Below are positions 7,376 through 35,939 of a stretch of DNA of 64,000 bases, in pieces. The translations under genes were made by a program, and so were the position numbers. The DNA comes from a virus (Duplodnaviria > Heunggongvirae > Uroviricota > Caudoviricetes): IMG/VR virus record IMGVR_UViG_3300027733_000047; one strand, 5' to 3'. Below the pieces are notes generated by a model, which saw only the letters and a list, made by a program, of their open reading frames with translations, had not been told where the DNA came from and did not search any database. Position 1 is the stretch's first letter; the number at the start of each line of letters is the position of its first letter.

Positions 7376-7395
7376 ATGTACACAAAAGTGTGCAT
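7376..7395. promoter_or_regulatory. 20-bp palindrome ATGTACACAAAAGTGTGCAT (operator-like, copy 1 of 9)
   Basis: Family consensus ATGTACACAA|TTGTGTACAT; lies between the terminator and the unit-B promoter. Confidence 0.5.
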
Positions 7396-7426
7396 TTAAA
7401 ATAATTTAAAAATAATTCAAAATAAA

Positions 7427-7527
7427 TTTGGTAGTATCAAATTAATGTACTACATTTGTATTGTCAATGTGAATGACAGACGATTAAAACTCGGGAGGTA
7501 TACTCCAAGCTACGTCATATTTTTTTA
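7427..7527 (+). ncRNA. mini-unit B (candidate sRNA)
   Basis: TTTGG(7427)-N19-TACATTTG(7451-7458), then tattgtcaatgtgaatgacagacgattaaaactcgggaggtatactccaagctacgtcataTTTTTTT. Confidence 0.45.
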
Positions 7528-7769
7528 GCGCTCCAAAAATCTTTTCATTCTTTCATATTCATAATTTTCATAATATAATATTTTTTTAATGAATTTAAAT
7601 AATGCTTTCATAGTATATGGATTTAATTATATATATTCAAATAATATACCAAACCAAAATTATTTTTCATATCCTATTTGTCAGCTCAAAACTGACAATG
7701 CAGATATAAAACATAACTCATTTTAAGCCGATTTAACGGCATATATTTATCAGATAAGGTAATCATAAG

Positions 7770-7802
7770 GGGCATAAAAAAAGGGGCTAAATTAGCCCCT
7801 TA
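7770..7802 (-). terminator. intrinsic terminator of 7821..8687
   Basis: Perfect palindrome aaggggctaaattagcccctt followed (on minus strand) by T7. Confidence 0.65.
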
Positions 7803-7820
7803 TTCATTCGTATAGCAATT

Positions 7821-8687
7821 TTAATTTGCCGTTGCCATATCGTATATGGTATCAAATATTTTGCCGTCTAGTGTTTTTTGCACATCAAACGATTTCGCAA
7901 ATTTGGTATGCAATATCTCGTTGAAGGCATTGTAACCTAACCACATATTAGGCGAAGTATTAAGGTATCTAGATTCAGCCAATATCGTATCTGCAACTAT
8001 TTCAGCATTTAAGGACGGCTCGGGATTTTTGTCCGATTTTTCATACTTAAATATAGCAGTTTCCTTGCATACGTCCTTTACGAATTTTTGCACATCAGAA
8101 ACGATTGCACCACTCAAAAACTCTGCCTTCGGTTTCAACGTGTAATACTCGTTATTCAAAAAATTGCTAACAAGGGTTTCAATTTCGGGCAATACAAACT
8201 CAACGATACTACCTTTATGCTTTACGTTAAAAGACATTTTGGTTTCAGCAACGTGCAAACCATTAGTACAAACTTGGCGAAAATATCCAAAACTGCCCGA
8301 CGTTTTACAACTGCCGTCATACGAATTAACGAAACGTAACATTGGCTTGATAATATCTTTGCCATTAGCCACAACGATATTATATCTATCATCGTTTAAG
8401 ATATAATCAACTGCGAAACTACGATTATCACGATTAATACTACGTGTGTCGTATTGCACATCAGCATTAATCAAATTTTCTTCCACAACGGCAAAAAACT
8501 GCTCGTTGGGTAAATGTCCGTAATTGTCCGAAAATACGCCTACCAACGTGCCGTTGGAATAGATTGCTTTTTCTAATCCCTTACGTGTAGGAGTGCCTAA
8601 AATTTCGGCTAAATTACGCACTTCGCTATCAACGAATACGTTGTCATTCTGCATTGTTTGCCCCTTAAAATTGATACGTGTAGTCAT
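7821..8687 (-). CDS. DUF932-like phage/plasmid protein
   Basis: Motif VNSYDGSCKTSGSFGYFRQVCTNGL resembles DUF932 signature (NSHDGSSA...FR.VCSNG); paralog of 32805..33701. Confidence 0.5.
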   Translation of the reverse strand: MTTRINFKGQTMQNDNVFVDSEVRNLAEILGTPTRKGLEKAIYSNGTLVGVFSDNYGHLPNEQFFAVVEENLINADVQYDTRSINRDNRSFAVDYILNDDRYNIVVANGKDIIKPMLRFVNSYDGSCKTSGSFGYFRQVCTNGLHVAETKMSFNVKHKGSIVEFVLPEIETLVSNFLNNEYYTLKPKAEFLSGAIVSDVQKFVKDVCKETAIFKYEKSDKNPEPSLNAEIVADTILAESRYLNTSPNMWLGYNAFNEILHTKFAKSFDVQKTLDGKIFDTIYDMATAN

Positions 8688-8740
8688 AACTGGGTTGCAT
8701 TTTAGCCACTCGCATTGTGGTTAGGTTGAATTGTGAGATA

Positions 8741-8780
8741 CAAATATCGCATTAGTTTTTCAAACCACCAAATTTATTTT
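8741..8780 (-). promoter_or_regulatory. Bacteroidota sigma-A-type promoter (TTTGG-N19-TAnnTTTG on minus strand)
   Basis: Plus strand reads caaatatcgc...ccaaatttatttt; drives 7821..8687. Confidence 0.55.
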
Positions 8781-8823
8781 GAATTATTTTTAAAATAGTT
8801 ATACACATATTATTTTTTATAAT

Positions 8824-8836
8824 GTGAATAACTTTG
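8824..8836. promoter_or_regulatory. half-site TGTGAATAACTTT (reverse complement of the TTATTCACA DnaA-box variant)
   Basis: Same extended motif AAGTTATNCACA as the other copies. Confidence 0.3.
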
Positions 8837-8842
8837 CACCCT

Positions 8843-8948
8843 AAAAAAAATAGCGTGTAGGTTGGAGTATACTTCCCGCCATTGTTAGTGCCGTATGTCA
8901 TTCAAATTGACAATACAAATATAGGATAATAAATTGAAACTACCAAAT
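8843..8948 (-). ncRNA. mini-unit D (candidate sRNA)
   Basis: Minus strand TTTGG-N19-TATATTTG, then tattgtcaatttgaatgacatacggcactaacaatggcgggaagtatactccaacctacacgctaTTTTTTTT; near-identical 5' segment to unit B. Confidence 0.45.
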
Positions 8949-9004
8949 TTATTTTAAAAAAAAATGCCCTACATTTGTAAGGCATTTAATTCGTGTGCTG
9001 ATTA

Positions 9005-9162
9005 ACACTGATAAGTTATCGGTATTATCTCAAACGCTTCAATAAAACCAGTTTCTGCTTGTAACACTTCAACAAGTGCAAGAGCATCAACTCTGTGTTC
9101 AAATGCTTTGTGCATAATACCCGCACCATTTTCAAATACGAGCCAAATTGTTTTTTCCATAA
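9005..9162 (-). CDS. small hypothetical protein (52 aa)
   Basis: My translation MEKTIWLVFENGAG...; promoter 9170-9230. Confidence 0.35.
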
Positions 9163-9307
9163 TAGATTGTTTTAATTGTGAGATACAAATATAGGATTAA
9201 TAATTCAAACTACCAAATATTTTTTGAAGTATTTTTAAAATATTTTTTTGGTGGTCTGGAATTAATGTTGTATGTTTGCTTTGTTTAAATGAATAGGTTA
9301 AAAGATA

Positions 9308-9345
9308 ATCCCTGATGTGTCTACATCGGGGATACTTTTTATTTT
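9308..9345 (+). terminator. plus-strand hairpin plus T-run
   Basis: atccctgatgt-gtctac-acatcggggat (11-bp stem, one G-U) then tttttatttt. Confidence 0.5.
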
Positions 9346-9354
9346 GTATAAACT

Positions 9355-9381
9355 AAAAAACCCCACACTTTTGGTGTAGGG
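9355..9381 (-). terminator. intrinsic terminator of 9406..9669
   Basis: Minus strand reads CCCTACAC-caaaa-GTGTGGGG then TTTTTT. Confidence 0.6.
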
Positions 9382-9405
9382 AATTTATTCACAATTAAAC
9401 TAACT

Positions 9406-9669
9406 TTAACTTCGTAGATATGCAATATCTTTGTTATACTTTAATGTCTTGGCTTGGCTTGTGGTCAGTCCAACAAACTCTTGTGGTCTAAAACTAATTT
9501 CATCGGGATAGAATTCAAATAAAAATTCTTCAACCCCATTTTCAAGCGTAACATAAACCTTTGGCATATCATCAAAGAAACTCTTTGGCATTGCCGTAAT
9601 TCTTGCTGATACGATTTTTAATTCTTCTGCTAACATAATTTTATTTTTTGATTGTGAATGAATAAGCAA
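9406..9669 (-). CDS. hypothetical protein
   Basis: ORF; promoter motif 9661-9710; terminator 9355-9381. Confidence 0.6.
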   Translation of the reverse strand: MLIHSQSKNKIMLAEELKIVSARITAMPKSFFDDMPKVYVTLENGVEEFLFEFYPDEISFRPQEFVGLTTSQAKTLKYNKDIAYLRS

Positions 9670-9722
9670 ATTTAAGATTAATTTTCCACACTACCAAATA
9701 TTTTGCAAAGTTTTTTCAACCC

Positions 9723-9742
9723 ATGTACACAAAAGTGTATAT
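9723..9742. promoter_or_regulatory. palindrome ATGTACACAAAAGTGTATAT (copy 2)
   Basis: About 20 bp upstream of the -33 of the 9406..9669 promoter. Confidence 0.5.
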
Positions 9743-9826
9743 CGTGGAATTGATTGAGAGTCGCCCCATGCTCTCATGTATTGCCGTTCTTTGTTGCGTG
9801 GACTTTCGGCACATTAAACAATTCCA

Positions 9827-10168
9827 TTATCTTTTATTCAACCATTCATCAAAGGTGCGATAACCTCCGAATGCTCTCCATTGGTTATACATATCATTCC
9901 TATCTTTGCAAACACGCTTTGCCCACTTGTAAACCAACTCGGTTTCTTTGAATGTGGTAAAGTTATCTCGGCAATAGTTTTCAAGAAACCCTACTGCTTG
10001 GCACCAACGAATATATGATTTTTCGGTAATGCGTCTGTTTATCCAATCATCACTTGTTCTGCCACAATCATTGAATTGTTTAATCGTATCAAACCCAGCA
10101 GACATTTTATCAATATCTACTTTGTTATATAAACTCTCAACAACCCTTGCTATGTAATGTGCTGTCAT
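9827..10168 (-). CDS. hypothetical protein
   Basis: 113-aa ORF on dominant strand. Confidence 0.55.
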   Translation of the reverse strand: MTAHYIARVVESLYNKVDIDKMSAGFDTIKQFNDCGRTSDDWINRRITEKSYIRWCQAVGFLENYCRDNFTTFKETELVYKWAKRVCKDRNDMYNQWRAFGGYRTFDEWLNKR

Positions 10169-10317
10169 ATTATTTTATATTATCTATTAACCAAGCGATA
10201 AATTTGCCTAATGAAGTTACAAACCAAATAAACCCCAATGTAACAAAAAAGCCAATCCAAAATTCTTGAGTGTATAACATACTGCAAATATAAGATAATT
10301 TTTTGAATGTACCAAAT

Positions 10318-10539
10318 TTATTTTATGTTTGTTAATGGGTAAGCGTTGATAAACCTTTCAGTAACTAGCTCAAAATTTTCTTTATCTCTAGGGTAGTATT
10401 CATTAGCAACGGATTCTAAAGCTGCTTCTACGTGTAGTTTGGCAAACTCTTTCATTGCTTGTGGAACACTTTGTTCAAAAGTGTGTCCTTCTTGCCTATG
10501 ATAATTTTTTATAAATTCTTCTGCTGTTTGTATTTTCAT
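10318..10539 (-). CDS. hypothetical protein
   Basis: ORF; consensus promoter 10541-10583 abuts ATG. Confidence 0.6.
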   Translation of the reverse strand: MKIQTAEEFIKNYHRQEGHTFEQSVPQAMKEFAKLHVEAALESVANEYYPRDKENFELVTERFINAYPLTNIK

Positions 10540-10540
10540 A

Positions 10541-10583
10541 CTGCAAATATAAGATTAATAATTGAATGTACCAAATTTATTTT
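10541..10583 (-). promoter_or_regulatory. consensus promoter abutting ATG (leaderless-type)
   Basis: ctgcaaatataagattaataattgaatgtaccaaatttatttt; -7 box ends 4 nt before ATG of 10318..10539. Confidence 0.6.
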
Positions 10584-10798
10584 TCAAATTCTTTTAGTGT
10601 TCTTAATGTTCGTTGTAATTCTTCCATATCACAACAAACTGCAACCCTTCTGCTAAATGGCAACCAAAAAAACCTATGATGTTTTACGACTACATAACCA
10701 ATCTCTAACTTACCTTCGTAGTTATATAATTGTTTATAATATGCGTAGTCATATTCGGTAAATGCTGAATTAAGTATTCTTTTTAATAATTTTTTCAT
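10577..10798 (-). CDS. hypothetical protein
   Basis: ORF; consensus promoter 10800-10842 abuts ATG. Confidence 0.6.
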   Translation of the reverse strand: MKKLLKRILNSAFTEYDYAYYKQLYNYEGKLEIGYVVVKHHRFFWLPFSRRVAVCCDMEELQRTLRTLKEFEK

Positions 10799-10799
10799 A

Positions 10800-10842
10800 C
10801 TGCAAATATAAGATTAATAATTGAATGTACCAAATTTATTTT
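10800..10842 (-). promoter_or_regulatory. consensus promoter abutting ATG
   Basis: Identical motif to 10541-10583; drives 10577..10798. Confidence 0.6.
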
Positions 10843-11153
10843 GCACTTTTTACATTATTAAATTCAACAACTCCAATTGCTCGTCTAACCAATGTCAATG
10901 CTTTTTGGTCGTAGCCACCAATATGCCAATCTGTTATTCTATTTACATCACGATTATTTTTGTAGTCATATATTGTAGCCACAACTGATTGTCCGTGAAT
11001 GCCACCTAATATTGTCCAATGTGCCAATGATTTGTCGTAATTGGTTTCAGGTTTGCCCAATGTCATAACCAATTCTTGATAGGTTATATCCAAATAACCT
11101 TGTAAGTGTGTGCCGTTTATTCTTGTGCTAGGGTGATTAATTTTGAATGCCAT
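10836..11153 (-). CDS. hypothetical protein
   Basis: ORF; consensus promoter 11170-11203. Confidence 0.6.
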   Translation of the reverse strand: MAFKINHPSTRINGTHLQGYLDITYQELVMTLGKPETNYDKSLAHWTILGGIHGQSVVATIYDYKNNRDVNRITDWHIGGYDQKALTLVRRAIGVVEFNNVKSAK

Positions 11154-11169
11154 TGCTTAATTGTTTAGG

Positions 11170-11203
11170 ACACAAATATAAGGATAATAATTCAATGTAC
11201 CAA
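11170..11203 (-). promoter_or_regulatory. consensus promoter
   Basis: cacaaatataaggataataattcaatgtaccaaatttattttt; drives 10836..11153. Confidence 0.55.
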
Positions 11204-11383
11204 ATTTATTTTTAAAATCTTTGTATCCTTGCCAAATGTTCTAATGCGTCTTTATAGGTATCTGCCCAAATACGATAGCCATCTAGTACATATAACTTTT
11301 TGCCATCTTCTCTTACTTGGATTGGTTGCGGTAAACTTGATTCGTTTTGCATTGTTTTTAATTTATAGATTATTTAATTTATT

Positions 11384-11507
11384 ACGACTTAAACTTTTTC
11401 GGATACCAAACTCCGCAACTGCCCTTGCTACAATTACCACTAACGTAATACTTTGAACAAGATGAAAATGCAACTGCGATTAGAATTAAGATGAATAACT
11501 TTTTCAT
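11384..11507 (-). CDS. small secreted Cys-rich peptide (41 aa)
   Basis: My translation MKKLFILILIAVAFSSCSKYYVSGNCSKGSCGVWYPKKFKS; promoter 11534-11573 abuts ATG. Confidence 0.4.
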
Positions 11508-11566
11508 AATAGATTGTTTTTAATTGTGAGATACAAATATAGGACTATTTTTTGTATCTACCAAAT

Positions 11567-11800
11567 TTATTTTAAAGAAAAAGAAATTTCTTTTTTTAAT
11601 GGTTTATCTACATCATAATCTAACTTACTTAATACTTCAACTAATTTATCATTAGTTTTGTGTAACTGGTTTCTAATTTCTTCGATAGTGTAAACTTTAT
11701 CTAGGTCGTTTGTTTGGCTTTCGTCTTTTAGTAAGAATATATCTACATCAGCCATAGTAGATGCAATTAATGTTCTAATTGTAAGTAATTCGTTTTGCAT
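11567..11800 (-). CDS. hypothetical protein
   Basis: ORF; promoter 11821-11860 abuts ATG. Confidence 0.6.
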   Translation of the reverse strand: MQNELLTIRTLIASTMADVDIFLLKDESQTNDLDKVYTIEEIRNQLHKTNDKLVEVLSKLDYDVDKPLKKEISFSLK

Positions 11801-11820
11801 AATTGATTTGTTTTAGAATG

Positions 11821-11860
11821 TAAATATAGGACTATTTTTTGTATCTACCAAATTTATTTT
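11821..11860 (-). promoter_or_regulatory. consensus promoter abutting ATG
   Basis: taaatataggactattttttgtatctaccaaatttatttt; drives 11567..11800. Confidence 0.55.
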
Positions 11861-12290
11861 AGATATTTACCAAAATAATTTCCGCTGATTGATACGATAT
11901 TTCGGGACTAACAAAAACTCCTTCCTTTTGGAATTTCCTTAATCTTGTATTTTCTTGTTTGGTAACTAAATTCCATATACCATACTTTGTAAGATAGATT
12001 TCTTTTAATTCATCTACACTATTAGGTGTTGTGTCCAGCAATATTTTACCAACTATTTTTCTTGGGTATTCGTGTTCTTTAACTCGTTTGTTCTTGGGTA
12101 ACTCCAATGCCTTCTCGCTTATCTTTCCGCTGAATGTTAATCTGTTTGTGGGTAGATAATATATTGCAGCACCAACGATTGTGGATAGAAATTCTTTTTG
12201 GTATTCAGTTGATGTGTCGTAACTTTGTTTTAGATTAACTAAAAGATTAAATACCGATTCAAACTTTTGTTCTGTTTTATTCATACGCAA
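11859..12290 (-). CDS. hypothetical protein
   Basis: ORF; promoter 12291-12330. Confidence 0.6.
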   Translation of the reverse strand: MRMNKTEQKFESVFNLLVNLKQSYDTSTEYQKEFLSTIVGAAIYYLPTNRLTFSGKISEKALELPKNKRVKEHEYPRKIVGKILLDTTPNSVDELKEIYLTKYGIWNLVTKQENTRLRKFQKEGVFVSPEISYQSAEIILVNI

Positions 12291-12316
12291 ATATAAGATT
12301 AATTTTTCAAAGTACC

Positions 12317-12350
12317 AAAAAAAAAGGAAAGTTTTTTTAGGACTTTCCCT
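12317..12350 (-). terminator. intrinsic terminator of 12367..12912
   Basis: Minus strand reads GGAAAGT-cctaaaaaa-ACTTTCC then T9. Confidence 0.65.
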
Positions 12351-12366
12351 TTTAGGTGTTTCACAA

Positions 12367-12912
12367 TTAACCTACTATCTTTTCGTTTATACCAAATTCA
12401 TCTAAAATTGATTCAACTCCGTAATATCCAAAACAACTATCTTCAATTTCGCCGTTTTCGTTTATCAATGTATATCCGTACACTTCGCCTCGCATATAAA
12501 GGTCGTATGTTTCTAATTCAGCCAATAGGACTTTTGTTACCTTCTCAATTTCTTTTTTGGTAACTCGCTTAACTCCGTATTCGTTTTTTACTTTATCTTT
12601 GCTAATAAACACAAACCCTATCTGCCCACTATCCCACTTGCAACTGAATGGTGTTGTTGAAATTGTTATGCCCGAATGGTCGTAAAGATATAAGGGTAAT
12701 ATGATTGCTGGTTTTTCATTTTTAATGATTGCCTTCTCCATTTCTGCCCAACCCGAATAATCTTGATGTTTGTAGGTGTGTTTGTCGCCTAACGAATATC
12801 GTCCGTGAAAACATATCATTGTAGATAGGTTATCATCGTGTCTTGGATTGTTAGGGTACTCGTCTTGTGTTACTTCTAATGTTTTGCCATTGTTTAATTT
12901 GTACGTTTCCAT
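12367..12912 (-). CDS. hypothetical protein
   Basis: Start moved to METYKLNNG (ATG 12910-12912) so it does not overlap promoter 12939-12980; terminator 12317-12350 downstream. Confidence 0.6.
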   Translation of the reverse strand: METYKLNNGKTLEVTQDEYPNNPRHDDNLSTMICFHGRYSLGDKHTYKHQDYSGWAEMEKAIIKNEKPAIILPLYLYDHSGITISTTPFSCKWDSGQIGFVFISKDKVKNEYGVKRVTKKEIEKVTKVLLAELETYDLYMRGEVYGYTLINENGEIEDSCFGYYGVESILDEFGINEKIVG

Positions 12913-13057
12913 TTTATTTGTTTTTAATTGTGAGATACAAATATAATACAATAAATTCAAACTACCAAATTTATTTTGAATTATTTTAAAGTTTTTTTAA
13001 AAAAGCTCCCGATATAGAAATATCGGGATTGATTATTGAATGAAAAAAAGAACTATT

Positions 13058-13255
13058 TTACCACTTGCCAACTATGTCCATAACTTGTTGGTACTGCTTT
13101 AAGTATGCGTCTGCCCAAAGGTCAATGAATTTGTTTTTCTGTTCGCCTAAAATACGATAATTGAATTTGTAACCACTGCCGTCTTCAAATTCTATCATTG
13201 CCAATTTGGCTTGGTGTTTTGATTCCAAAACTTCAACTGCTTGTGCTAATGTCAT
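13058..13255 (-). CDS. hypothetical protein
   Basis: ORF; promoter 13262-13320. Confidence 0.55.
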   Translation of the reverse strand: MTLAQAVEVLESKHQAKLAMIEFEDGSGYKFNYRILGEQKNKFIDLWADAYLKQYQQVMDIVGKW

Positions 13256-13319
13256 AATATATGTTTTTTAATTGTGAGATACAAATGTACGATTATTTTT
13301 TGAATGTACCAAATTTATT

Positions 13320-13577
13320 TTAATAATATTTTGCATAACCCGTCCAAAACCAAACTGAAATTCCTGCAAATATAGACGTAGCAACGATTGTAAACACTCT
13401 ATTATTTTTTCTTTGTTTCTTTAACTTCAACGAATATTGTTGTTTGTATATTACACTATCCGTTATTTTTGAACGAACTGACATATAAAGGTCATTACGT
13501 TTTTGGTAATAGGACGTGTCTTGTGCATTTGTGCTGAAACTGAATAAGATTGCGATTGCAAAGAATAATTTTTTCAT
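13320..13577 (-). CDS. small secreted/membrane protein
   Basis: Signal peptide MKKLFFAIAILFSFSTNAQ; promoter 13590-13640. Confidence 0.55.
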   Translation of the reverse strand: MKKLFFAIAILFSFSTNAQDTSYYQKRNDLYMSVRSKITDSVIYKQQYSLKLKKQRKNNRVFTIVATSIFAGISVWFWTGYAKYY

Positions 13578-13788
13578 CTTTATTTGTTTTTAATTGTGAG
13601 ATACAAATATAGGACTATTTTTTGGAAATACCAAATAAAATTGCAACTAAATATGAAAAAGTTATTAGTGTAAGGAATACATTATTCATCACTCCAATTT
13701 CGGATTCCTCGCCTATGTTGTTTAATATAAAACCACCCACCAATAATACTATTATAATTGCGTGAAATAAACGTAAATTTTTCATTTT

Positions 13789-13992
13789 TTATAGTTTAAA
13801 TAAATTAATAGGAATAAGGTTAAATTCTTCGGGTAATTCTCGCATAGCACCCATACCTTTTCTTTCAGCATTGTGTTGCTTTAACCACTCTTTAAATTCA
13901 GTTTTGTTTCTTACCAATGTTTCAAACTTCTTATCATCACCATTACCAAACCTATCATTGTATTCAACAATGTAAAATGTATTCTTTGTCAT
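13789..13992 (-). CDS. hypothetical protein
   Basis: ORF, start overlaps stop of next gene. Confidence 0.5.
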   Translation of the reverse strand: MTKNTFYIVEYNDRFGNGDDKKFETLVRNKTEFKEWLKQHNAERKGMGAMRELPEEFNLIPINLFKL

Positions 13993-14273
13993 AAACTGGC
14001 TATTATTTTTTTACGATATGCAACATATTTTCCCAAACGATTGATAAAACTTTCTGCTGATTTCTTTGTGCTGAAATAGGCAAAGAATTGACAATACTCA
14101 CTATCCTCGCTTGTTGTAGGTCTAAGTACTTTGTTTTCTTTTAATTTATCTACAATGTCGTAATTGCTTTCGCAGTTACCAAATGTTTCCAACCCACGAA
14201 GGTCAGCCGTTACCGTCCATTTTTTGTCCCACTCGTATTTTGTGGGAATGATTTTGTCTATTGTGTAAGCCAT
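13989..14273 (-). CDS. hypothetical protein
   Basis: ORF; promoter 14282-14340. Confidence 0.6.
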   Translation of the reverse strand: MAYTIDKIIPTKYEWDKKWTVTADLRGLETFGNCESNYDIVDKLKENKVLRPTTSEDSEYCQFFAYFSTKKSAESFINRLGKYVAYRKKIIASL

Positions 14274-14325
14274 TGTTAATTAGTTTAGAATGTAAATATA
14301 GTACTATTTTTTCAAACTACCAAAT

Positions 14326-14679
14326 TTATTTTAATTTTTCTGCTAATTCTTTAATTACTTTAAAATCAAATTCTTGACAACCAACGATTACTTTTTTTGT
14401 CTGCTTATCAATAATCGCAGTATAATCACAATTTAACTTAAAATTACTTCGCGTAGTATTTTCAAGCAAATCAATCATTTCTTCAATGCTAACCACATTA
14501 TAACCATCACCACTAACCGAGCCAACGATTTCATTACGATTACTATTGTATTGAAAATGCTCCCAACCATTACTTTTTTCGCCAAAATAATTCTCACATA
14601 CATCAATACCTCTTTGCTTTGCGATAGTAAACAACCAACCAATTAATTTATCATTTTTTACTCTAACTGAATATATCAT
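14326..14679 (-). CDS. hypothetical protein
   Basis: ORF; promoter 14690-14745. Confidence 0.6.
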   Translation of the reverse strand: MIYSVRVKNDKLIGWLFTIAKQRGIDVCENYFGEKSNGWEHFQYNSNRNEIVGSVSGDGYNVVSIEEMIDLLENTTRSNFKLNCDYTAIIDKQTKKVIVGCQEFDFKVIKELAEKLK

Positions 14680-28850: not shown

Positions 28851-28864
28851 TACCCCTCGCGCAC

Positions 28865-28886: not shown

Positions 28887-28964
28887 AAAACACAGATGCC
28901 GTTATCTCTAACGGCACCCATGAATCATCAATCTAAAACTAAAAACAAAAAACAAAAAGCAATA

Positions 28965-29531
28965 TTATTCATCTTCATCATCATAATCATCATCTTCCTC
29001 ATCATCAGGATAAAAGAATCCTTGGTCACCACAACTTTCGGGATAAGGTAAACTCTCCCACCATTGCTTCCAGTCACTATTTGTATTTGGTAACCTCTCA
29101 ACCAACTTGGGCATCTTTAATCCCTGTTTCGCCCATCCCTCAAACTCACCGCTATCACCAAAACTCTCCCAACCATGCTCGGCAACCAATTCATTCGCAC
29201 ATAATCCACCTTCACTCTCAATCGGTGATTGATAATTATCAAAATCCTCACGATGACAATACTTCTTATCACCCTTCTTGATACCTCGAACCCAAATCTT
29301 ATCAAAGAATAACATTCTAGTTTCTTCATCAGTATCACCCTTATACCCATTCATCTCCGCTGATAGTACATGAATATCTTTACCACCAAACACTCCATAA
29401 CCCTCGTAGTTATTCTCGGTGAATATTTGTCCGTCTTCCGTAACCATATGTACTGGAAATGTACTTCTAGTACTATAATGATTTGCAATACTCTTGTTTG
29501 TATCGCTTGTTAGCCAACTAAAAAATCCCAT
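28965..29531 (-). CDS. hypothetical protein with poly-acidic C-terminus
   Basis: 188-aa ORF ending DDEEDDDYDDEDE. Confidence 0.6.
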   Translation of the reverse strand: MGFFSWLTSDTNKSIANHYSTRSTFPVHMVTEDGQIFTENNYEGYGVFGGKDIHVLSAEMNGYKGDTDEETRMLFFDKIWVRGIKKGDKKYCHREDFDNYQSPIESEGGLCANELVAEHGWESFGDSGEFEGWAKQGLKMPKLVERLPNTNSDWKQWWESLPYPESCGDQGFFYPDDEEDDDYDDEDE

Positions 29532-29695
29532 AATATTATGTTTTAGTGTTTGTGAAAATAATCGTAAATGTCAACAACGCAGTTAAATATTAGCATAGCC
29601 ATAATGATAGTACCTAAACCCAATAAGCACCATACCACAAATACTTCGCTGTCGTGTCTTTGTCTTTCTCTATTGTTCATAACGCAAATGTAAGA

Positions 29696-30253
29696 TTAAA
29701 AAATGAATTTACCAAAACTATCTTTTCTTAAACATAATTGAGATAGATTTGTATTTAATATTGTTTCACCTTGGCTATCCAATTCTTTAATTTTTTTTGT
29801 CACATACTCTCTACCATCAACCCTATTTAAGATTTGTTCAAGCGTATATCCCTTCCAACTCAACATCTTATATCCGTTTTCGTTGAAATTTTTGCTATAA
29901 CATATACCCTTAAGCATATCTTTAGCCAACTTCTTTTTATGTTTCTCAATCTTTTTCTTATTGGATATAGCATATACCACTTCATTAATCCAATGTTCAA
30001 GATTACTTTTAATCTCAATAGTTCTTTCACCATAGGTTACAAACTTTGAAGGTAAGGTCTTGCAATACTCCTCTGCTTGTGCAATAATAGGTCGTAACTC
30101 AATAGAATACGCATTATAAAAGGTACAACCACCTCTGCCGTCATTATTAGCATAGGCAACCTTCTTACCATTAACATACAAATCTGCTTTGAACATCAGC
30201 GTTTCTTCGCTGAACGCTTCATTAATCTTTACGTTTTTTAATTCTAATTTCAT
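29696..30253 (-). CDS. hypothetical protein
   Basis: 185-aa ORF; promoter 30270-30315. Confidence 0.6.
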   Translation of the reverse strand: MKLELKNVKINEAFSEETLMFKADLYVNGKKVAYANNDGRGGCTFYNAYSIELRPIIAQAEEYCKTLPSKFVTYGERTIEIKSNLEHWINEVVYAISNKKKIEKHKKKLAKDMLKGICYSKNFNENGYKMLSWKGYTLEQILNRVDGREYVTKKIKELDSQGETILNTNLSQLCLRKDSFGKFIF

Positions 30254-30312
30254 ATTATTTAAGTTTTAGAATACAAATATAAGAAAAAATTTGTTACAAA
30301 CCAAATTTATTT

Positions 30313-30660
30313 TTAATTATCCCAATCATTATAATCACCGTCCTCCAGCGCCTCTAATATCCCTATTAAGATATCCAAAGGTAAATCATCGTAGTTATGT
30401 TCCGATTGGAACTCCAACCAGTAATCATTATCTCCAGTATCAATATGTACCTTACCCGATTCACCGTCAACCCTCTTAACACAATGATTCGTTTGGTCGT
30501 CAACTACGATATAGATTAACGGTGTATGTAATTCAATCACCCTAACATCATTACTCAAAAACATACTCTTGATGTCATTCATGATATCAATCCTTAAATC
30601 TAATATCGCCCTTTTGTATTCTGTACTTTTCATATATAACTTTTTAATAATAATAAGCAA
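30313..30660 (-). CDS. hypothetical protein
   Basis: 115-aa ORF. Confidence 0.5.
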   Translation of the reverse strand: MLIIIKKLYMKSTEYKRAILDLRIDIMNDIKSMFLSNDVRVIELHTPLIYIVVDDQTNHCVKRVDGESGKVHIDTGDNDYWLEFQSEHNYDDLPLDILIGILEALEDGDYNDWDN

Positions 30661-31000
30661 TTGCTACCGTATAAAGATGTAAATCAACTTCATCAACTGA
30701 AACCTCATAATGTTCATAATAGTTAACATTACCAAATACCTTCTTCGCCAGTTTCTCAACAGCATCAGTAATCTTTTTTAGATTATCTAATTTACGATTC
30801 TTTAACATATACTCTGCTACCAACCTATCGGCTTCATTAAGATAACCCTTCTTTAAGGTATCTTTACGAAAGAAATCCACATTCTCAACAAAATCCAAAT
30901 CGTGTGAGAATATTTGAAGCAAACCTTCTTTGATATGACCATCACACATCGTATGCAATTGAAAATGAATTAACCCAAGTGAATTGTTGTAATTGCCCAT
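30644..31000 (-). CDS. hypothetical protein
   Basis: ORF; promoter 31010-31055. Confidence 0.55.
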   Translation of the reverse strand: MGNYNNSLGLIHFQLHTMCDGHIKEGLLQIFSHDLDFVENVDFFRKDTLKKGYLNEADRLVAEYMLKNRKLDNLKKITDAVEKLAKKVFGNVNYYEHYEVSVDEVDLHLYTVAIAYYY

Positions 31001-31025
31001 GATTTATTTTTTTACAAATATAAGA

Positions 31026-31388
31026 TTAAATTTCCGTTTCAACAAATTTATTTTCATAAACTTGTCGTAGCCCGCCGTAACCAATTGGAATCCCGCCGTT
31101 GCCCCACTGAACATCACCCTCGTTGTAATCATCCATGTTACCCTTAACCAATGAAATAAACATATCGTATGCCTCCTTCATTACCTGACTGTCATTACCG
31201 TACATAACATAAAATCCAAATAGATTTTGTTTTGGCTGTCCAACAAATACAATCTTATAACTATCACCGTACTTATGCACGCTTGCTCTGTTCTTGAACC
31301 CTGAATAACTTATTGGTTTGTTTGTACTCAAATTAATCAACCCTAACAATTTTAAATTGTCAACCAACTGCTCATTACTTAACTTCAT
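31026..31388 (-). CDS. hypothetical protein
   Basis: 120-aa ORF. Confidence 0.55.
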   Translation of the reverse strand: MKLSNEQLVDNLKLLGLINLSTNKPISYSGFKNRASVHKYGDSYKIVFVGQPKQNLFGFYVMYGNDSQVMKEAYDMFISLVKGNMDDYNEGDVQWGNGGIPIGYGGLRQVYENKFVETEI

Positions 31389-31417
31389 ATATCTAATTTT
31401 AGTTTACAAATATAGGA

Positions 31418-32239
31418 CTATTGATTCAAATTGTCCGCATTTAATTTTAACTTCATCATTTGTTTAATAGCACCTGCCCTCTCAAATTGCTCATCTTTGA
31501 TAGCCAACTCTAATAACTTCTCCAAAACTGGAAGGGCGTACTCCTCAATTAAATTACCTTCCTCATGGGCAATCTCTACCAACCAAGTATTGAAATCATC
31601 TAACTCGCTGTCATCCTCAACATCATCAATCAATCTTTCCTCAATCCAATATGACATATCACCCAATATCTCCATTGCTAATTTAATCGAATCTTTGCTG
31701 TAATCGGGTTGATAGATATCTACTATCTCACCACCCTGTAAGGTATAGGTCCCAACATTGCTACCAAAATCTTCATCAGCATATCTTACTTCAATAGTAA
31801 TATCCTCAAACATCTCACTCAATTTAACCAACGCCCTGATAGGTGTACTCCACGCTGTTTCAAATATAACAAACCCCTCATCACCCTCGCCTCTATGACT
31901 ATAACAATCCCACTTCGTACCCCAACTATGTATGTGCCAATCATACCAATTATCAGCACCATACTTACGCTTTAAGTTATTTTGCTCATCTTTGGTAATA
32001 GGTCTATAATCTTTCTCCCACTCGTTTAACTCACCTTTGGCTACCTTATCTTTCCACTCCTGTAACTCTGCTTCGGTTACAATCTTTGCTGGACTACTCG
32101 TTCCTATCAACTCATCAGGCATAGGATAAAATGATTGAAAACTAAATGGGCTTTTATCACCCTTACATTTCTCTCTTAACTCTTTAATTCTTTCTGTACT
32201 ACCTAAAAAGGTTACTTCGTTTGTTACGTGGTTTGGCAT
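31418..32239 (-). CDS. hypothetical acidic protein
   Basis: 273-aa ORF; promoter 32265-32310. Confidence 0.6.
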   Translation of the reverse strand: MPNHVTNEVTFLGSTERIKELREKCKGDKSPFSFQSFYPMPDELIGTSSPAKIVTEAELQEWKDKVAKGELNEWEKDYRPITKDEQNNLKRKYGADNWYDWHIHSWGTKWDCYSHRGEGDEGFVIFETAWSTPIRALVKLSEMFEDITIEVRYADEDFGSNVGTYTLQGGEIVDIYQPDYSKDSIKLAMEILGDMSYWIEERLIDDVEDDSELDDFNTWLVEIAHEEGNLIEEYALPVLEKLLELAIKDEQFERAGAIKQMMKLKLNADNLNQ

Positions 32240-32300
32240 TGTTTTATGTTTTAAATTTATGAATACGCAAATATAATACTAATTTTGGTAACTACCAAAT

Positions 32301-32564
32301 TTATTTTTCTGTCTTATCATATCTTATATAAGATATCCAATACTGCTCCAAATCTATCATTTGATTATTACACAAATCCATGAAATCACTTAGGGTAATA
32401 ATATCAATATCATTAGGTATCGCTGTTTCTAATTGATGTATGTCATACAGGTTATTCTCAACCTTCTCAGCAAACCCTCTCCTGTCATACTCATCAATCG
32501 GTATCAATAATATTCTCGTTTCAATATTCATAGCCTTAATGTTTAGATAGCAAATATAAGACAA
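32301..32564 (-). CDS. hypothetical protein
   Basis: ORF; promoter 32550-32595. Confidence 0.55.
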   Translation of the reverse strand: MSYICYLNIKAMNIETRILLIPIDEYDRRGFAEKVENNLYDIHQLETAIPNDIDIITLSDFMDLCNNQMIDLEQYWISYIRYDKTEK

Positions 32565-32605
32565 CTTTTGTTATCAACCAAATTTATTTTAATAAAAAAA
32601 AGATT

Positions 32606-32690
32606 TTTTTATTCCAAAATATAATCCTATATTTGCATAGCAATCATGCAAGACGACTACAAATCGGGAGGTATACTCCAACCTACCCCT
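32606..32690 (+). ncRNA. mini-unit H (candidate sRNA, no T-run)
   Basis: TATATTTG, then catagcaatcatgcaagacgactacaaatcgggaggtatactccaacctacc; shares gacgactacaaatcggga(a/g)gtatactccaac with unit E. Confidence 0.3.
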
Positions 32691-32691
32691 A

Positions 32692-32730
32692 TTTGCTAAA
32701 TTCTTTAGTACTTGCTAAAATCTTTAGTAT
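32692..32730. promoter_or_regulatory. two tandem TTGCTAAA-N3-TTTAGTA palindromes
   Basis: tttgctaaattctttagta / cttgctaaaatctttagtat directly after mini-unit H. Confidence 0.4.
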
Positions 32731-32745
32731 TGGATAAAACAAAAA

Positions 32746-32773
32746 AAGTTATTCACATTGCTGTGAATAACTC
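32746..32773. promoter_or_regulatory. inverted pair TTATTCACA / TGTGAATAA (DnaA-box variant) hairpin
   Basis: aagttattcacattgctgtgaataactc, 12-bp stem. Confidence 0.45.
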
Positions 32774-32804
32774 TTTCGGATTTTAAAGCGGGTTTTTCTA
32801 TATG

Positions 32805-33701
32805 TTAAGCAAGGCTCAACTCGTTTAAAGCAAATTCAAAACTTGCTTGGTTTTTCTTATACGATGTACCAACCAACATGTTTTCCCAATCACCATTTAC
32901 ACGCTTGGGTGCTTTTCTCTCATGTGTTGTCCATGATGTAACACCACTGTGTAACCCCCACATGTTCATTCCCTTCTGCTCCATTTCCTTATTGATGTGT
33001 GTGTATAAATCATCCATGATGTTAATCGACTTTTGTGTTAACTTGTCGAATTCAGCAATGCTGGTAATTACTCTATCATAACCCAATACACTCTTAACCA
33101 TTTTATCGGCTAATCCTTTTGATACTTCTGTAGATACAAATCTACGATATCTCTCAACTTGGCGAAGGCTCTCACCTAATGCTGTTTCAATCAGGGAAGG
33201 AATCGATTTGATTTTCTCATTCAATGTCGCTGTATGTCTAAACTTCGCGTTACCTTCTCTATAGAAACGGAAAAACTGATTCATACAACTCATAGTCAAA
33301 TCACCAATACCAACACTTAACCCTGTACTACCATCATTGCTGTCTATGATTGTAACATAACGTTTGATGATGTCATCACCTACTTTGCTGTCACCTTCGA
33401 TAGCCAACTGCATAAACACCCTACGACCACCATTGATACTTCCAGCCTTGGATACAGTTAACTCACTACCAAACTTCTCCATACCGCGTAATACCATCTC
33501 AACCACATCTGCATTCTGCGATACAGTATAACCTTCTTTTACTGTATTGATACACTCATTCGTTGAACTGTTAAATAAACCGTAATACGGTGTTATCATT
33601 TGCTCACCTTGGTTATTGTGCGCAATCAAGGGCGCTTTCTCAATAGTGAAATCTAAACCATGTACAGATAAAATGTCTTGTACTTTCTCATTGTAATTCA
33701 T
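32805..33701 (-). CDS. DUF932-like phage/plasmid protein
   Basis: 298 aa; IIDSNDGSTGLSVGIGDLTMSCMNQF resembles DUF932 core; paralog of 7821..8687; promoter 33730-33770. Confidence 0.45.
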   Translation of the reverse strand: MNYNEKVQDILSVHGLDFTIEKAPLIAHNNQGEQMITPYYGLFNSSTNECINTVKEGYTVSQNADVVEMVLRGMEKFGSELTVSKAGSINGGRRVFMQLAIEGDSKVGDDIIKRYVTIIDSNDGSTGLSVGIGDLTMSCMNQFFRFYREGNAKFRHTATLNEKIKSIPSLIETALGESLRQVERYRRFVSTEVSKGLADKMVKSVLGYDRVITSIAEFDKLTQKSINIMDDLYTHINKEMEQKGMNMWGLHSGVTSWTTHERKAPKRVNGDWENMLVGTSYKKNQASFEFALNELSLA

Positions 33702-33787
33702 AACTTTAATTTTTTTAAGTGATTAATAGAATGCAAATATACTATTAAATTTAATGCCAACCAAATATAATCTTATTTATTTTAAAA

Positions 33788-33973
33788 TTATTTTTCAGTA
33801 TAGATAAACTTAACCTTGCTACCTTGTTTGGTATTTGGCTCCAATTTATCTATATTTGTCCAGCCCCACTTCCATTCAACCTTGGTGGCACCAACCCAAC
33901 CAATGGTACGAAGGAATCTACCGTATTGGTTTACTACATATAATCTGTCACCTACTTTGATATCTTTTACCAT
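33788..33973 (-). CDS. hypothetical protein
   Basis: 61-aa ORF overlapping stop of next gene. Confidence 0.45.
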   Translation of the reverse strand: MVKDIKVGDRLYVVNQYGRFLRTIGWVGATKVEWKWGWTNIDKLEPNTKQGSKVKFIYTEK

Positions 33974-34188
33974 TCTACTTTAAATTTATCTAATGTGTCT
34001 AAATATACAATCTCATAATTCAAGCAAATATACTCTCTATTATCCATTTCACTATCCAACCATACTTTGATTATACCTACAGGCCTATCATCAACATACA
34101 GGGTAACCTCGGGCTCACCTTCATCTTGATATGATAATTGTTTGTAATCTTTGAACCTGACTTCCGTTTCTTCCTTGATACGTTTCAT
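33967..34188 (-). CDS. hypothetical protein
   Basis: ORF; promoter variant 34192-34235; palindrome 34238-34260 upstream. Confidence 0.5.
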   Translation of the reverse strand: MKRIKEETEVRFKDYKQLSYQDEGEPEVTLYVDDRPVGIIKVWLDSEMDNREYICLNYEIVYLDTLDKFKVEW

Positions 34189-34237
34189 ACAGCAAATGTA
34201 ATTTTAATTATTCAAATAAACAAATCTATTTTTATAA

Positions 34238-34260
34238 GGGGTACACAATTGTGTACACCC
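34238..34260. promoter_or_regulatory. palindrome GGTACACAATTGTGTACACC (copy 7)
   Basis: Abuts the promoter of 33967..34188. Confidence 0.5.
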
Positions 34261-34262
34261 AC

Positions 34263-34988
34263 CTATATAGCAATGGCAAACCCTGTGGTAAATGCTACCT
34301 TATTATCAGCACCTTTGCCTGTTTGGTTTTTATACTTCAAACCAACTATAACACCCTGTTCGTCCAGAAAACGTAAATCAGTTTCATCACCGTTAACTAC
34401 TCTATAACCGTTATACGTTTCAGGTAACTTATTAAATACCATGGCTACATTATAACCTTTCTTTAATACCGCCATGGCATGTTTGTCGTTATCTTCACTC
34501 CTGCTAAAGGTTAAATGATAATTGCTAGGCATGGACCCGTCAAACCTTTTAGGATTCTTGGTATAATCATAAAATTGTATATCAGGATATAATTCGAAAA
34601 TATTCTTACCTTCACGTATCTTTAATTTTTCCCAACGTATATCACTAGTACCGTTTAACCTGAATACTGGTATTGCTTTACCTTCATGTTTTTTGATAGC
34701 TTTGCTCACCTCTAAATCTAATTGAGCTAAAAACTCTTTGCGATTGGCTAAATACCATTCAGTTTTATTACGACGACCTTCCTGAACTGTATCGTACATC
34801 CCACCAAACCCTGACTTAAATAAACAGGCCGATGAACACCCTGAACTAGCATGTGGACATAAATTAACACCCTGACTATTATCAGTATAAGGTGACATGT
34901 ACATAATATAGGTTATATAACCTAATTTAGCACCTTTGATTGTTTTGTGGTTGTTTGTGGTTAACAACGTACTTTTGTAGTAAGACAT
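34263..34988 (-). CDS. hypothetical Cys-cluster protein
   Basis: 241 aa; CPHASSGCSSAC cluster; promoter 35000-35055. Confidence 0.6.
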   Translation of the reverse strand: MSYYKSTLLTTNNHKTIKGAKLGYITYIMYMSPYTDNSQGVNLCPHASSGCSSACLFKSGFGGMYDTVQEGRRNKTEWYLANRKEFLAQLDLEVSKAIKKHEGKAIPVFRLNGTSDIRWEKLKIREGKNIFELYPDIQFYDYTKNPKRFDGSMPSNYHLTFSRSEDNDKHAMAVLKKGYNVAMVFNKLPETYNGYRVVNGDETDLRFLDEQGVIVGLKYKNQTGKGADNKVAFTTGFAIAI

Positions 34989-35061
34989 AAGCTTTAATGT
35001 TTTAGATTAAGAAAGTACAAATGTATGGCTATTTTTGATACGTTCCAAATTTATTTTGCCT

Positions 35062-35090
35062 GGCACATAACAAAGTTATCCACATCATGT
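35062..35090. promoter_or_regulatory. hairpin AAAGTTAT-CCACAtcatgtgc-ATAACTTT with a perfect DnaA box (35066-35074)
   Basis: At the edge of the ORF-free region, abutting the promoter of 34263..34988. Confidence 0.45.
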
Positions 35091-35547
35091 GCATAACTTT
35101 ATTTGGATAGGTAAATTATCCTATCATAAATTTGTAACCTCACTAACCTCGAAGTTATGATTCTGTTAATGTACCTAACCACAAAACAACCTAAATCCTT
35201 AAACAGTATCCCCGCTGCTATATCGCTGGACATGTTAATCCTCTGGACCCCTGAGCGGCGTCACCTGCAATATGAAAGGTTCATCGGCCCTGCTCCAGAA
35301 CCGCGAGTCGGTTAATCTAATATTAATTTTGGATTACTAGTTGACCTGAACCCCTTTTTTTCGTATACTTGTAAATAATATGTCTACATCGATAACTAGA
35401 ACCACAGTTGGACCTAAGTCAGGATTTGTTGACCCCCTAAAGAAAACATTCCCTCCTCTCATCTCCCGCTGCACACACAGCCTCCTGCATCAGGATGGCC
35501 ATTCTCAGATTTCCCCGTTAGACCCGCGCGGCGCCTAGCCCGAACCC

Positions 35548-35567
35548 ATGTACACTTTTGTGTATAT
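35548..35567. promoter_or_regulatory. palindrome ATGTACACTTTTGTGTATAT (copy 8)
   Basis: Inside the 1-kb ORF-free region. Confidence 0.5.
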
Positions 35568-35603
35568 AACTTAAAGATGATACGTTTAAGGATGCTCACA
35601 AAA

Positions 35604-35620
35604 TGCTAAATTCTTTAGCA
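35604..35620. promoter_or_regulatory. TGCTAAA-ttc-TTTAGCA palindrome
   Basis: Same family as 4741-4795 and 32692-32730; inside the ORF-free region. Confidence 0.4.
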
Positions 35621-35919
35621 CGGCTTCTCCCACGAAAAAAAAATTTCAGCCGAAAAAAGGGGGAGAGTTTACGGAGAGGGTAACCCTAAATGGCTTATCA
35701 CCCCAAAAGAAAAGTGGGTGCTAGGCATGAAAATGGGGTGCAAAAGTGTTCACCCCCATTTTAGGGGTGCAAATTCAACACATTTTAACACTTTTTACCA
35801 CTCCCTGACATTTTTTCAAAAAAAATACTGTAGAATGTTAAGGTGTCCAACATTAGTTTTATGGTACATATAAATAATAATATTTTTAGCAAATCGGAAA
35901 TTCTAGGTCCCGAAAAATC

Positions 35920-35939
35920 ATGTACACTTTTGTGTACAT
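35920..35939. promoter_or_regulatory. palindrome ATGTACACTTTTGTGTACAT (copy 9)
   Basis: Inside the ORF-free region, 30 bp from the HNH gene stop. Confidence 0.5.

Follow-up and report, generated by a model that had tools for sequence, protein, structure and literature searches.

Dispersed palindromic operators of phage regulators are well known, as exemplified by the conserved inverted repeats (CIRs) of phage phiC31, the stoperators of L5-type phages and the C-boxes. The CIRs are reportedly the operators of the repressor of this Streptomyces phage. Other dyad sites lie upstream of the promoter they serve, such as the class I-type activator sites of CRP at -61.5 or -71.5 and the dyad of the P2 Ogr late promoters at about -55. 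In phage N4, the promoter of the virion RNA polymerase is a small DNA hairpin on the template strand. To our knowledge, gene regulation has not been described for any large uncultured phage of Bacteroidota. In cluster A mycobacteriophages, the repressor (L5 gp71 family) brings elongation to an end at many genomic sites (PMC9283540, PMC6550527); these stoperators are asymmetric and orientation-dependent, and they are read by a monomeric two-domain repressor (PMC9283540). The PeSLs of T4-type phages consist of a stem-loop followed by an early host-type promoter, and they lie between small accessory genes of a hyperplastic region (PMC2839356, PMC4122927). Here, we describe a palindromic 20-mer of the form ATGTACACAATTGTGTACAT that occurs nine times, mostly with imperfect arms, in viral IMG/VR record IMGVR_UViG_3300027733_000047, of which a stretch of 64,000 nucleotides (nt) was analysed, referred to below as the window. 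It is probable, though by no means assured, that this motif is a multi-copy operator for a dimeric, phage-encoded and sequence-specific regulator that acts on double-stranded DNA at a subset of promoters.

The nine copies have the core ACAC-W4-GTGT (W being A or T) in common, which starts at 7380, 9727, 17183, 21339, 26416, 28871, 34243, 35552 and 35924. Only ACAC and GTGT are invariant in all nine, with flanks that are near ATGT and ACAT. A search with the 20-mer, allowing at most three mismatches, recovered eight of the nine sites, with an expectation of 0.00 from 100 dinucleotide-preserving shuffles; the ninth, at 17179, has an identical core. A preliminary description of this DNA had reported nine perfect palindromes with invariant arms. 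Nine copies do exist, with none expected by chance, but only copy 9 has perfect arms, and it is also the single occurrence in the window of the 18-mer TGTACAC-W4-GTGTACA. The arms deviate in the eight other copies: GTGTGCAT is found in copy 1, GTGTATAT in copies 2, 4 and 8, TAGTACAC in copy 3, AAAGACAC in copy 5, and GGGTACAC in copies 6 and 7. Three of the reported starts were off by one to three bases, since copies 5, 6 and 7, placed at 26415, 28865 and 34238, start in register at 26412, 28867 and 34239. The variable A/T centre holds, but next to AAAA, AATT and TTTT there is also AAAT, in copy 6. All copies are intergenic (9/9) and lie in a block of about 30 kb of small minus-strand genes. 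Outside 7.4-35.9 kb of the window there is no comparable site, just four-mismatch matches at background rate. The motif scan and enrichment test that had been suggested thus gave a frequency far above that in shuffles in the window, and above expectation in the loci of relatives. GTAC and TGTACA, inspected for restriction-site avoidance, are not avoided in the window.

The sites are embedded in an array of promoters. The window has a G+C content of 32%, and almost all of it is taken up by small genes on the minus strand. From 4.9 to 35 kb, this strand displays 49 strict matches to TTTG-N19-21-TAnnTTTG, the -33/-7 promoter type of Bacteroidota; these are mostly near-identical (TTTGGTAGTTTGAA…TAATCTTATATTTG), with about one per small gene. 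All nine copies are located within or at the edge of this early-promoter block (4853..35049, minus strand), and the palindrome is present at 5-6 of the approximately 49 promoters. The array from 4853 to 35049 is in itself unusually dense and uniform. At most junctions there is no terminator and the upstream stop codon lies inside an A-rich tract before the -33 box, so that read-through would be the default; a minority has an ordinary terminator with a GC hairpin and a T-run.

Copy 1 (ATGTACACAAAAGTGTGCAT, 7376..7395) is found between two plus-strand features: the terminator of gene 7022-7330 precedes it and, after 31 bp, the -33 box of promoter 7427-7458 follows. Copy 2 (ATGTACACAAAAGTGTATAT, 9723..9742) has its minus-strand end 24 bp upstream of the -33 TTTG of promoter 9698-9667. 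For copies 3 (TAGTACACAAAAGTGTACAT, 17179..17198) and 4 (ATGTACACAATTGTGTATAT, 21335..21354), the preceding stop codon is 4 nt (gene 17203-17481) and 49 nt (gene 21404-21859) away, and the next -33 box is 24 bp (promoter 17154-17123) and 69 bp (promoter 21265-21234) downstream, respectively. Copy 5 (AAAGACACAATTGTGTACAT, 26412..26431), of which one arm has decayed, occupies a 44-nt gap without promoter, with 3 nt to the end of gene 26435-26680 on one side and 20 nt to the next ATG on the other. Copy 6 (GGGTACACAAATGTGTACAT, 28867..28886) is preceded by a GC hairpin and ends 25 bp upstream of the -33 box of promoter 28841-28810. Copy 7 (GGGTACACAATTGTGTACAC, 34239..34258) comes directly behind GP88, whose stop codon is 4 nt away, and is separated by 14 bp from the -33 box of the downstream promoter 34224-34193. 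The last two form a conserved pair: copy 8 (ATGTACACTTTTGTGTATAT, 35548..35567) is its imperfect, GP88-proximal member, 560 bp upstream of the GP88 start, and copy 9 (ATGTACACTTTTGTGTACAT, 35920..35939), the sole copy with perfect arms, its distal member, 30 nt past the stop of HNH gene 35970-36614. The claim that copies 2, 3, 6 and 7 sit 0-25 bp upstream of a minus-strand -33 box is borne out by the measured distances (24, 24, 25 and 14 bp), and the CTCGCG noticed at copies 3 and 6 is located between each of them and its -33 box. Companion motifs occur near some copies (GCGCGAG, GGCCATCGG), which are too few for interpretation.

The distribution of the motif outside the window points to phages. 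The exact 20-mer with a W4 centre was found in 40 stretches of IMG/VR viral contigs, many having several copies per contig, and the 18-mer in 82 stretches; the G+C content of the 20-mer loci is below 40% (25-38%) for all but two copies on one contig. In 596 Gb of bacterial and archaeal genomes, the 20-mer was found in 10 stretches, which is the level expected by chance. Nine of these ten are singletons in unrelated taxa with a G+C content of 31-68%, without taxonomic coherence. The tenth, a 103-kb contig labelled Methanobacterium sp. MAG (PLXT01000052.1, here L045), has two perfect palindromes upstream of a GP88 gene whose product is 64% identical. Because of this GP88, a DUF932 gene and Bacteroidota-type promoters on the contig, L045 is read as a misbinned phage of the same clade and not as archaeal DNA. 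The possibility of a host regulon, under a transcription factor of Bacteroidota, was rejected since the motif is at chance level across these prokaryotic genomes. The preliminary description had proposed a dimeric regulator of phage or host; the dimer-type site and its link to promoters agree with the former half of this proposal, and the 596-Gb scan narrows the latter half to a phage-encoded protein.

Relatives were collected by homology to GP88, and thus independently of the motif. The GP88-family gene (PF17338; 34263..34988, minus strand) is the syntenic anchor of copies 7-9 in 21 of 26 close relatives. Among loci with a GP88 of at least 55% identity, the motif is present in 21 of 26, as against 0-1 of 54 more distant loci, and 366 kb of GP88-selected loci contain 51 sites with at most three mismatches, where 2 are expected. 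Judged from these counts, the motif is phage-specific and common to one clade of large uncultured phages of Bacteroidota. A search of the literature for the motif sequence and for phage promoters of such type gave nothing relevant and, as far as these searches show, the motif, its clade and its candidate reader are without earlier description. No near-identical DNA was present in 50,697 phage records, and searches with the GP88 and sigma-factor proteins matched distant phages only, without cultured relatives. Four other viral contigs (L051, L061, L063 and L076) share a conserved palindrome of another sequence, CTGTACACTTAAGTGTACAG, at 9 nt from the end of a gene; this may be the variant of a related operator that a separate group of phages uses.

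A palindrome in a transcribed gap may function as DNA or as RNA. The variation among 79 non-redundant sites, from the homology-selected loci and the window, bears on this question. A change in one arm is not accompanied by a corresponding change in the other (Fisher p 0.19-1.0 across positions). Changes of a single arm are much more frequent than double ones, few of which are complementary: at arm position 3, there are 25 single-arm changes, 2 double ones and 1 complementary one. The G-to-A variant is equally frequent in either arm, which gives the half-site T[G/A]TACAC. The centre consists of A and T in 76 of the 79 sites, in any order (ATTT, AATT, TTTT, AAAA, AAAT), and its sequence flips between sister phages, which fits an uncontacted, bendable spacer and not a recognised loop. 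The lack of compensation between the arms, the free A/T centre and the steps of about 10.5 bp in the spacing to promoters, described below, favour a dimeric protein that binds double-stranded DNA over a hairpin in RNA.

An RNA hairpin, with an 8-bp stem and a 4-nt loop in the transcript, would serve as a processing site, a 3'-end stabiliser, a factor-dependent terminator or the binding site of a translational regulator. The sites do come right behind stop codons and are part of the sense-strand transcript, perfect copies have a folding energy of -8.6 to -9.2 kcal/mol, the loop is U-biased on the sense strand with a GG flank on its 3' side, and on contig L260 a degenerate copy is followed by a T-run, as in a terminator. 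Nevertheless, we consider such an element quite unlikely. Compensatory changes are absent, and single-arm changes yield A.C mismatches as often as G.U pairs; many copies retain just ACAC/GTGT and one arm. The loop, free beyond being A/T and flipping between sister phages, is unlike that of protein-recognised RNA hairpins, and steps of 10.5 bp would be meaningless for an RNA element. There is no match to any Rfam family in the window at gathering threshold, and no covariation. Neither does the palindrome resemble an intrinsic terminator: the stem is AT-rich and followed by GGG, AGG or AAA, and a T-run is absent although terminators with a GC hairpin and a T-run occur in the same block.

A hairpin in the DNA is also conceivable, as an N4-like promoter for a phage RNA polymerase. 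The distance from the centre of the loop to the G-rich flank (CAT|GGG) is 10-11 nt, near the N4 geometry, and the four arm variants of the window all keep G.T pairing on the template strand. This bias of the four G.U-preserving variants had suggested a template-strand hairpin, but it is absent in the larger sample of 79 sites. Furthermore, the loop is not conserved, some 49 host-type promoters and an element of phage-sigma type account for transcription, and an N4-like or single-subunit polymerase was found in none of the loci examined. Such a promoter is therefore the most improbable of the explanations considered, with a very slim chance of being correct.

The relatives keep two motif positions, namely a pair upstream of GP88 and a single copy upstream of the promoter of a gene for a protein of about 110 amino acids. 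This promoter is a second element, ATATTTAT, about 20 nt before the ATG, which is also present towards either end of the window, 12-25 nt upstream of start codons (minus strand; 62924, 52770, 51232, 2720, 1903 and 1193), and which probably represents a phage-specific, perhaps sigma-dependent, promoter class. The single copy belongs to a module in another region of the same genomes (group A), with the order sigma-70-family gene, sometimes an extra gene, palindrome, 24-47 bp, ATATTTAT, about 20 nt, and the ATG of a gene for 100-135 amino acids. The sigma gene has the sigma-70-family regions 1.2, 2, 3 and 4. This module and that around GP88 (group B) are found on the same contigs, including that of the closest relative, 3300033075_000969 (GP88 77% identical). 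Relatives that carry the sigma gene together with this small gene (L173, L262, L264 and L265) are very large phages, with contigs up to 376 kb and genes for SmpB, IF3, an RNase R-like exonuclease and NAD synthase, a remarkable complement of functions in translation and RNA turnover.

The distance between site and promoter appears to be under selection. In 27 distinct loci, the centre of the site is 34-37 bp (8 loci), 45-48 bp (13) or 56-58 bp (4) from ATATTTAT, with 2 outliers; these classes of about 36, 46 and 57 bp are about one helical turn apart. The periodicity is strong at 10.5 bp (Rayleigh R = 0.74, p ~4e-7) and was reached in none of 20,000 permutations. In a tree of the downstream protein, sister lineages lie one turn apart at least five times (36/48, 35/46, 58/47, 34/46 and 46/36), which argues for repeated selection for whole-turn changes and not for inheritance. 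For the host-type early promoters, from the centre to the -33 box there are 22-24 bp at five sites in five different phages, including copy 7 of the window, and 34-35 bp for window copies 2, 3 and 6. The site centre would thus be positioned at roughly -50, -60 or -70, outside the core promoter, an estimate that is made with unmapped start sites.

A function away from initiation deserves attention at this point. The DNA-bound regulator could be a roadblock that halts read-through RNA polymerase, much like at a stoperator, and that insulates transcription units and the origin-like region described below. The sites are found in short gaps of a long one-directional gene array, often 0-15 nt past a stop codon, and most junctions of the block lack a terminator; the pair upstream of GP88 brackets the origin-like region at the border of a packed upstream module and individually promoted genes. 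There is also a precedent, in that mycobacteriophage repressors terminate elongation at numerous dispersed genome sites (PMC9283540). A roadblock needs no fixed helical phase to the next promoter, yet this phase is strongly kept. With an extra gene present after the sigma gene, it is the promoter of the small gene downstream, and not the sigma stop codon, that the palindrome accompanies. Moreover, the cluster A stoperators are asymmetric sites, dependent on orientation and bound by a monomer (PMC9283540), and the present site is symmetric. We regard the roadblock as a serious secondary possibility, unlikely as it is; it and promoter control are not mutually exclusive.

Which protein reads the sites has been approached by adjacency and fold. 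In line with the observation that no gene in the window is an obvious helix-turn-helix (HTH) candidate, a Pfam search of all window genes, the small open reading frames being concatenated, gave no HTH domain. The lone plus-strand gene 7022-7330, beside copy 1, had been put forward as the reader. It belongs to a widespread family of about 90 amino acids, and its structural model (pLDDT 92) matches generic helical bundles only, without HTH fold, so that this suggestion has no support. GP88 was considered as well and had no informative match in the PDB. The most likely reader is the protein of about 110 amino acids (100-135) encoded downstream of the single copy: it is predicted by modelling to have a long N-terminal helix and a C-terminal HTH of the lambda-repressor/XRE type. 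Foldseek gave nothing significant for this protein and there was no sequence match in Pfam or the PDB; a profile of the family run against six-frame open reading frames detected no homologue in the window. The choice is thus made by adjacency and fold, and not by strict co-occurrence with the motif.

On this basis, a mechanism can be proposed for the operator. The half-site A-T-[G/A]-T-A-C-A-C, a 4-bp A/T centre and the inverted half-site would together be bound by a dimer. The gene of the reader, beside the sigma-factor gene and directly downstream of the best-conserved copy, would be autoregulated through this copy; it lies outside the window. Elsewhere, the bound dimer would be positioned on a fixed face of the helix upstream of promoters, about 23 or 34 bp from the -33 box, or 36, 46 or 57 bp upstream of the phage-type element ATATTTAT. 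It may modulate the initiation by polymerase at chosen promoters, which in the window would be 5-6 of the approximately 49 early ones, and a pair of sites would bracket the origin-like region upstream of GP88. We infer from the sequence that the candidate protein binds the site and that polymerase is contacted, and also the sign of the effect. We lean towards activation or fine-tuning from upstream, because the sites are clear of the core promoter.

Several observations weigh against this operator model. Homologues of the protein of about 110 amino acids with an ATATTTAT promoter but without palindrome within 7-20 kb exist in several other large phages (L173, L264, L265, L177, L178, L206, L208, L210, L224 and L245), and these keep the predicted recognition helix. 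The HTH family is thus broader than the motif, and the link between protein and site is one of adjacency and not of strict co-occurrence. The early promoters with a palindrome share the consensus of the 40-odd lacking it and thus do not obviously require activation. Copies 5, 8 and 9 are at no phased distance from any recognisable promoter. Many sites are located 0-15 nt past a stop codon, which would also fit an element at the end of a transcript. Finally, the promoter-linked sites are polar, with an excess of T in the sense-strand centre (about 18 to 3) and with GG after the promoter-proximal arm (about 15 to 2), neither of which is explained by a symmetric dimer.

The second conserved position is found at GP88. 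In the window and its relatives (group B), a packed gene module is followed by the distal copy, an iteron-rich non-coding segment, the proximal copy and, after 0.55-1.4 kb, GP88. The distal copy is usually perfect and a few nt past the last stop codon, the proximal copy often imperfect. In the closest relative (L093, GP88 77% identical), there is also a copy just past the GP88 stop, which matches copy 7. Copies 8 and 9 are situated in a 1-kb non-coding stretch upstream of GP88 and enclose 352 bp. This segment (35568..35919, minus strand) has the iteron-like repeats GTGGTAAAAAGTGTTAAAATGTGTTGA and TTGCACCCC, the latter twice, and in addition TTTTCGGCTGAAATTTT. It is conserved in position and partly in sequence among relatives, with a 70-nt block that is 77% identical to L021/L099, and relatives display similar arrays of GTGGTAAAA as well as GTACCCAC-N4-GCACGTTTG. 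Both GC and AT skew break at about 36 kb without a change in gene orientation. The segment is a candidate replication origin or regulatory hub. A structured RNA in the GC-rich non-coding DNA between copy 8 and the GP88 promoter (35090-35547) was rejected: shuffled sequences fold with the same energy (z = 0.01), Rfam gives no match, and DNA conservation in relatives is limited to a short GGGGTCCAGAGG match with L093.

With an origin candidate between copies 8 and 9, the motif could instead be a replication site, bound by an origin- or fork-related phage protein, with these copies delimiting the origin and the others being secondary. The conserved pair that brackets an iteron-rich segment in most relatives and the skew change speak for this. 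The best-conserved single copy in relatives is found at the promoter of the HTH gene, phased to it and far from GP88, most window copies adjoin promoters and not iterons, and the assignment of the origin is itself inferred from sequence. All this leaves a role in replication as its main function with a small chance, smaller than that of an RNA hairpin.

The variable gene content between the sites raises one more explanation. As in PeSLs, units of stem-loop and promoter could be points of homologous exchange by which small accessory genes are shuffled. The block is an array of "ORFans" with about 49 near-identical promoters, and the content and order of genes between GP88 and DUF932 differ among relatives, with palindromes at some junctions. 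Homologues of gene 21404-21859 are beside a palindrome in the window and in L023 and elsewhere in L093 and L096, and pairs of palindromes flank single small genes in L008, L010, L013 and L019. PeSLs, composite motifs of terminator and promoter, have such a role (PMC2839356, PMC4122927). The palindrome is present at 5-6 of about 49 junctions only, though, and 20 bp is short for homologous exchange, for which the 32-bp promoters would be better suited. Furthermore, the exact sequence is kept at phased distances across phages with fully diverged flanks, which argues for selection for recognition by a protein and not for mere repetition. We therefore judge a recombination or cassette-boundary element to be improbable, about on a par with the replication site; exchange at these points could be a by-product of the operator role.

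The elements of the operator model could be combined. It can be imagined, though doubtfully, that one XRE-type regulator and one 20-bp operator do three jobs, namely autoregulation, gating of a subset of early promoters and bracketing of the origin, with a second partner behind the polarity of the site. If so, a genome-wide system of timing and insulation would couple transcription to replication in a lytic giant phage of up to about 370 kb. As it stands, the analysis yields an operator sequence, a candidate regulator, two promoter classes (-33/-7 and ATATTTAT) and a candidate origin, all of which are conserved in dozens of genomes from metagenomes. With the motif, members of the clade can also be recognised cheaply, even on contigs that are misbinned into archaeal or bacterial genomes.

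Other features of the window concern its genes and a second repeat. The recognisable genes encode a thymidylate synthase, a split nicotinamide phosphoribosyltransferase (NAMPT) with HNH and GIY-YIG endonucleases, two DUF932 proteins, the GP88-family protein, and proteins with PKD domains and CHU_C. No tRNA genes were found in the window. The type IX secretion sorting signal CHU_C, together with PKD domains at 48531-51207, is an export signal specific to Bacteroidota and unusual on a phage; along with the promoters, it points to a host among the Bacteroidota. The thymidylate synthase (54303-55433) has 376 amino acids and matches a 266-position Pfam model from end to end, which means that about 110 residues are inserted. 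Two separate parts, one N-terminal (60477-61307) and one C-terminal (58629-59408), make up the nicotinamide/nicotinate phosphoribosyltransferase gene, with an HNH endonuclease gene on the opposite strand between them (59762-60499) and a GIY-YIG endonuclease gene nearby (62108-62896). This arrangement is likely due to the insertion of an intron or a homing endonuclease. Another repeat, CGGGA(A/G)GTATACTCCAAC, which has GGAGTATACTCC as its 12-bp palindromic core, has six copies where about one is expected: at 4810-4821, 6321-6332 and 8864-8875 on the minus strand, and at 6821-6832, 7495-7506 and 32668-32679 on the plus strand. Each copy has a -33/-7 promoter of its own, whose -7 box is 32-40 nt upstream, and comes after a variable hairpin; four are followed by a T-run. 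These units have no common fold and no Rfam match; they look like promoter-driven non-coding units of about 70 nt or like a second operator. The same element flanks the homologue of gene 7022-7330 on the 294-kb contig L260.

Set against the described systems, the motif is similar to several of them and identical to none. The small HTH autoregulators, namely the controller (C) proteins of restriction-modification systems with their C-boxes and the anti-CRISPR-associated (Aca) proteins, come to mind for the candidate reader, but membership of the protein of about 110 amino acids was not found at the sequence level in Pfam or the PDB. It has a long N-terminal helix, which typical C proteins lack, and its neighbours are genes for a sigma factor, SmpB and an RNase R-like protein, not restriction or methylase genes. 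A C-box overlaps the promoter of its own gene; here the centre of the site is 36-57 bp upstream of a -10-like element, clear of the -35 region, and the site recurs many times across 28 kb of early genes. The PeSLs share the stem-loop directly before an early host-type promoter and the repetition among small genes. Their stem-loops act as terminators and are not one fixed sequence across distant phages, unlike the present palindrome, which is found at a minority of promoters, has no T-run and also occurs without promoter. With the stoperators, the motif has in common many copies in small gaps of one-directional arrays and the strongest site at the control region of the regulator; its two-fold symmetry, with weak polarity in the centre and one flank, sets it apart. 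The dyad-symmetric site upstream of the core promoter, at positions that differ by whole helical turns, is reminiscent of CRP and P2 Ogr, with the differences that -50, -60 and -70 are estimates, that the early promoters already match the consensus and that the polymerase is of the Bacteroidota type (-33/-7). The CIRs of phiC31 are alike in being a short inverted repeat that is tied to the autoregulation of a regulator and recurs, highly conserved, in early intergenic regions. That phage is a small temperate actinophage whose repressor maintains lysogeny, and the sequence of its site is unrelated; here the operator is predicted from sequence alone, and the phages are large (contigs to 368 kb), without lysogeny genes in the loci examined. 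What the motif shares with HTH operators in general is a symmetric, over-represented site in non-coding DNA, half-sites that vary independently, and phasing to promoters. It would therefore be a further instance of dispersed phage operators, and not a new principle.

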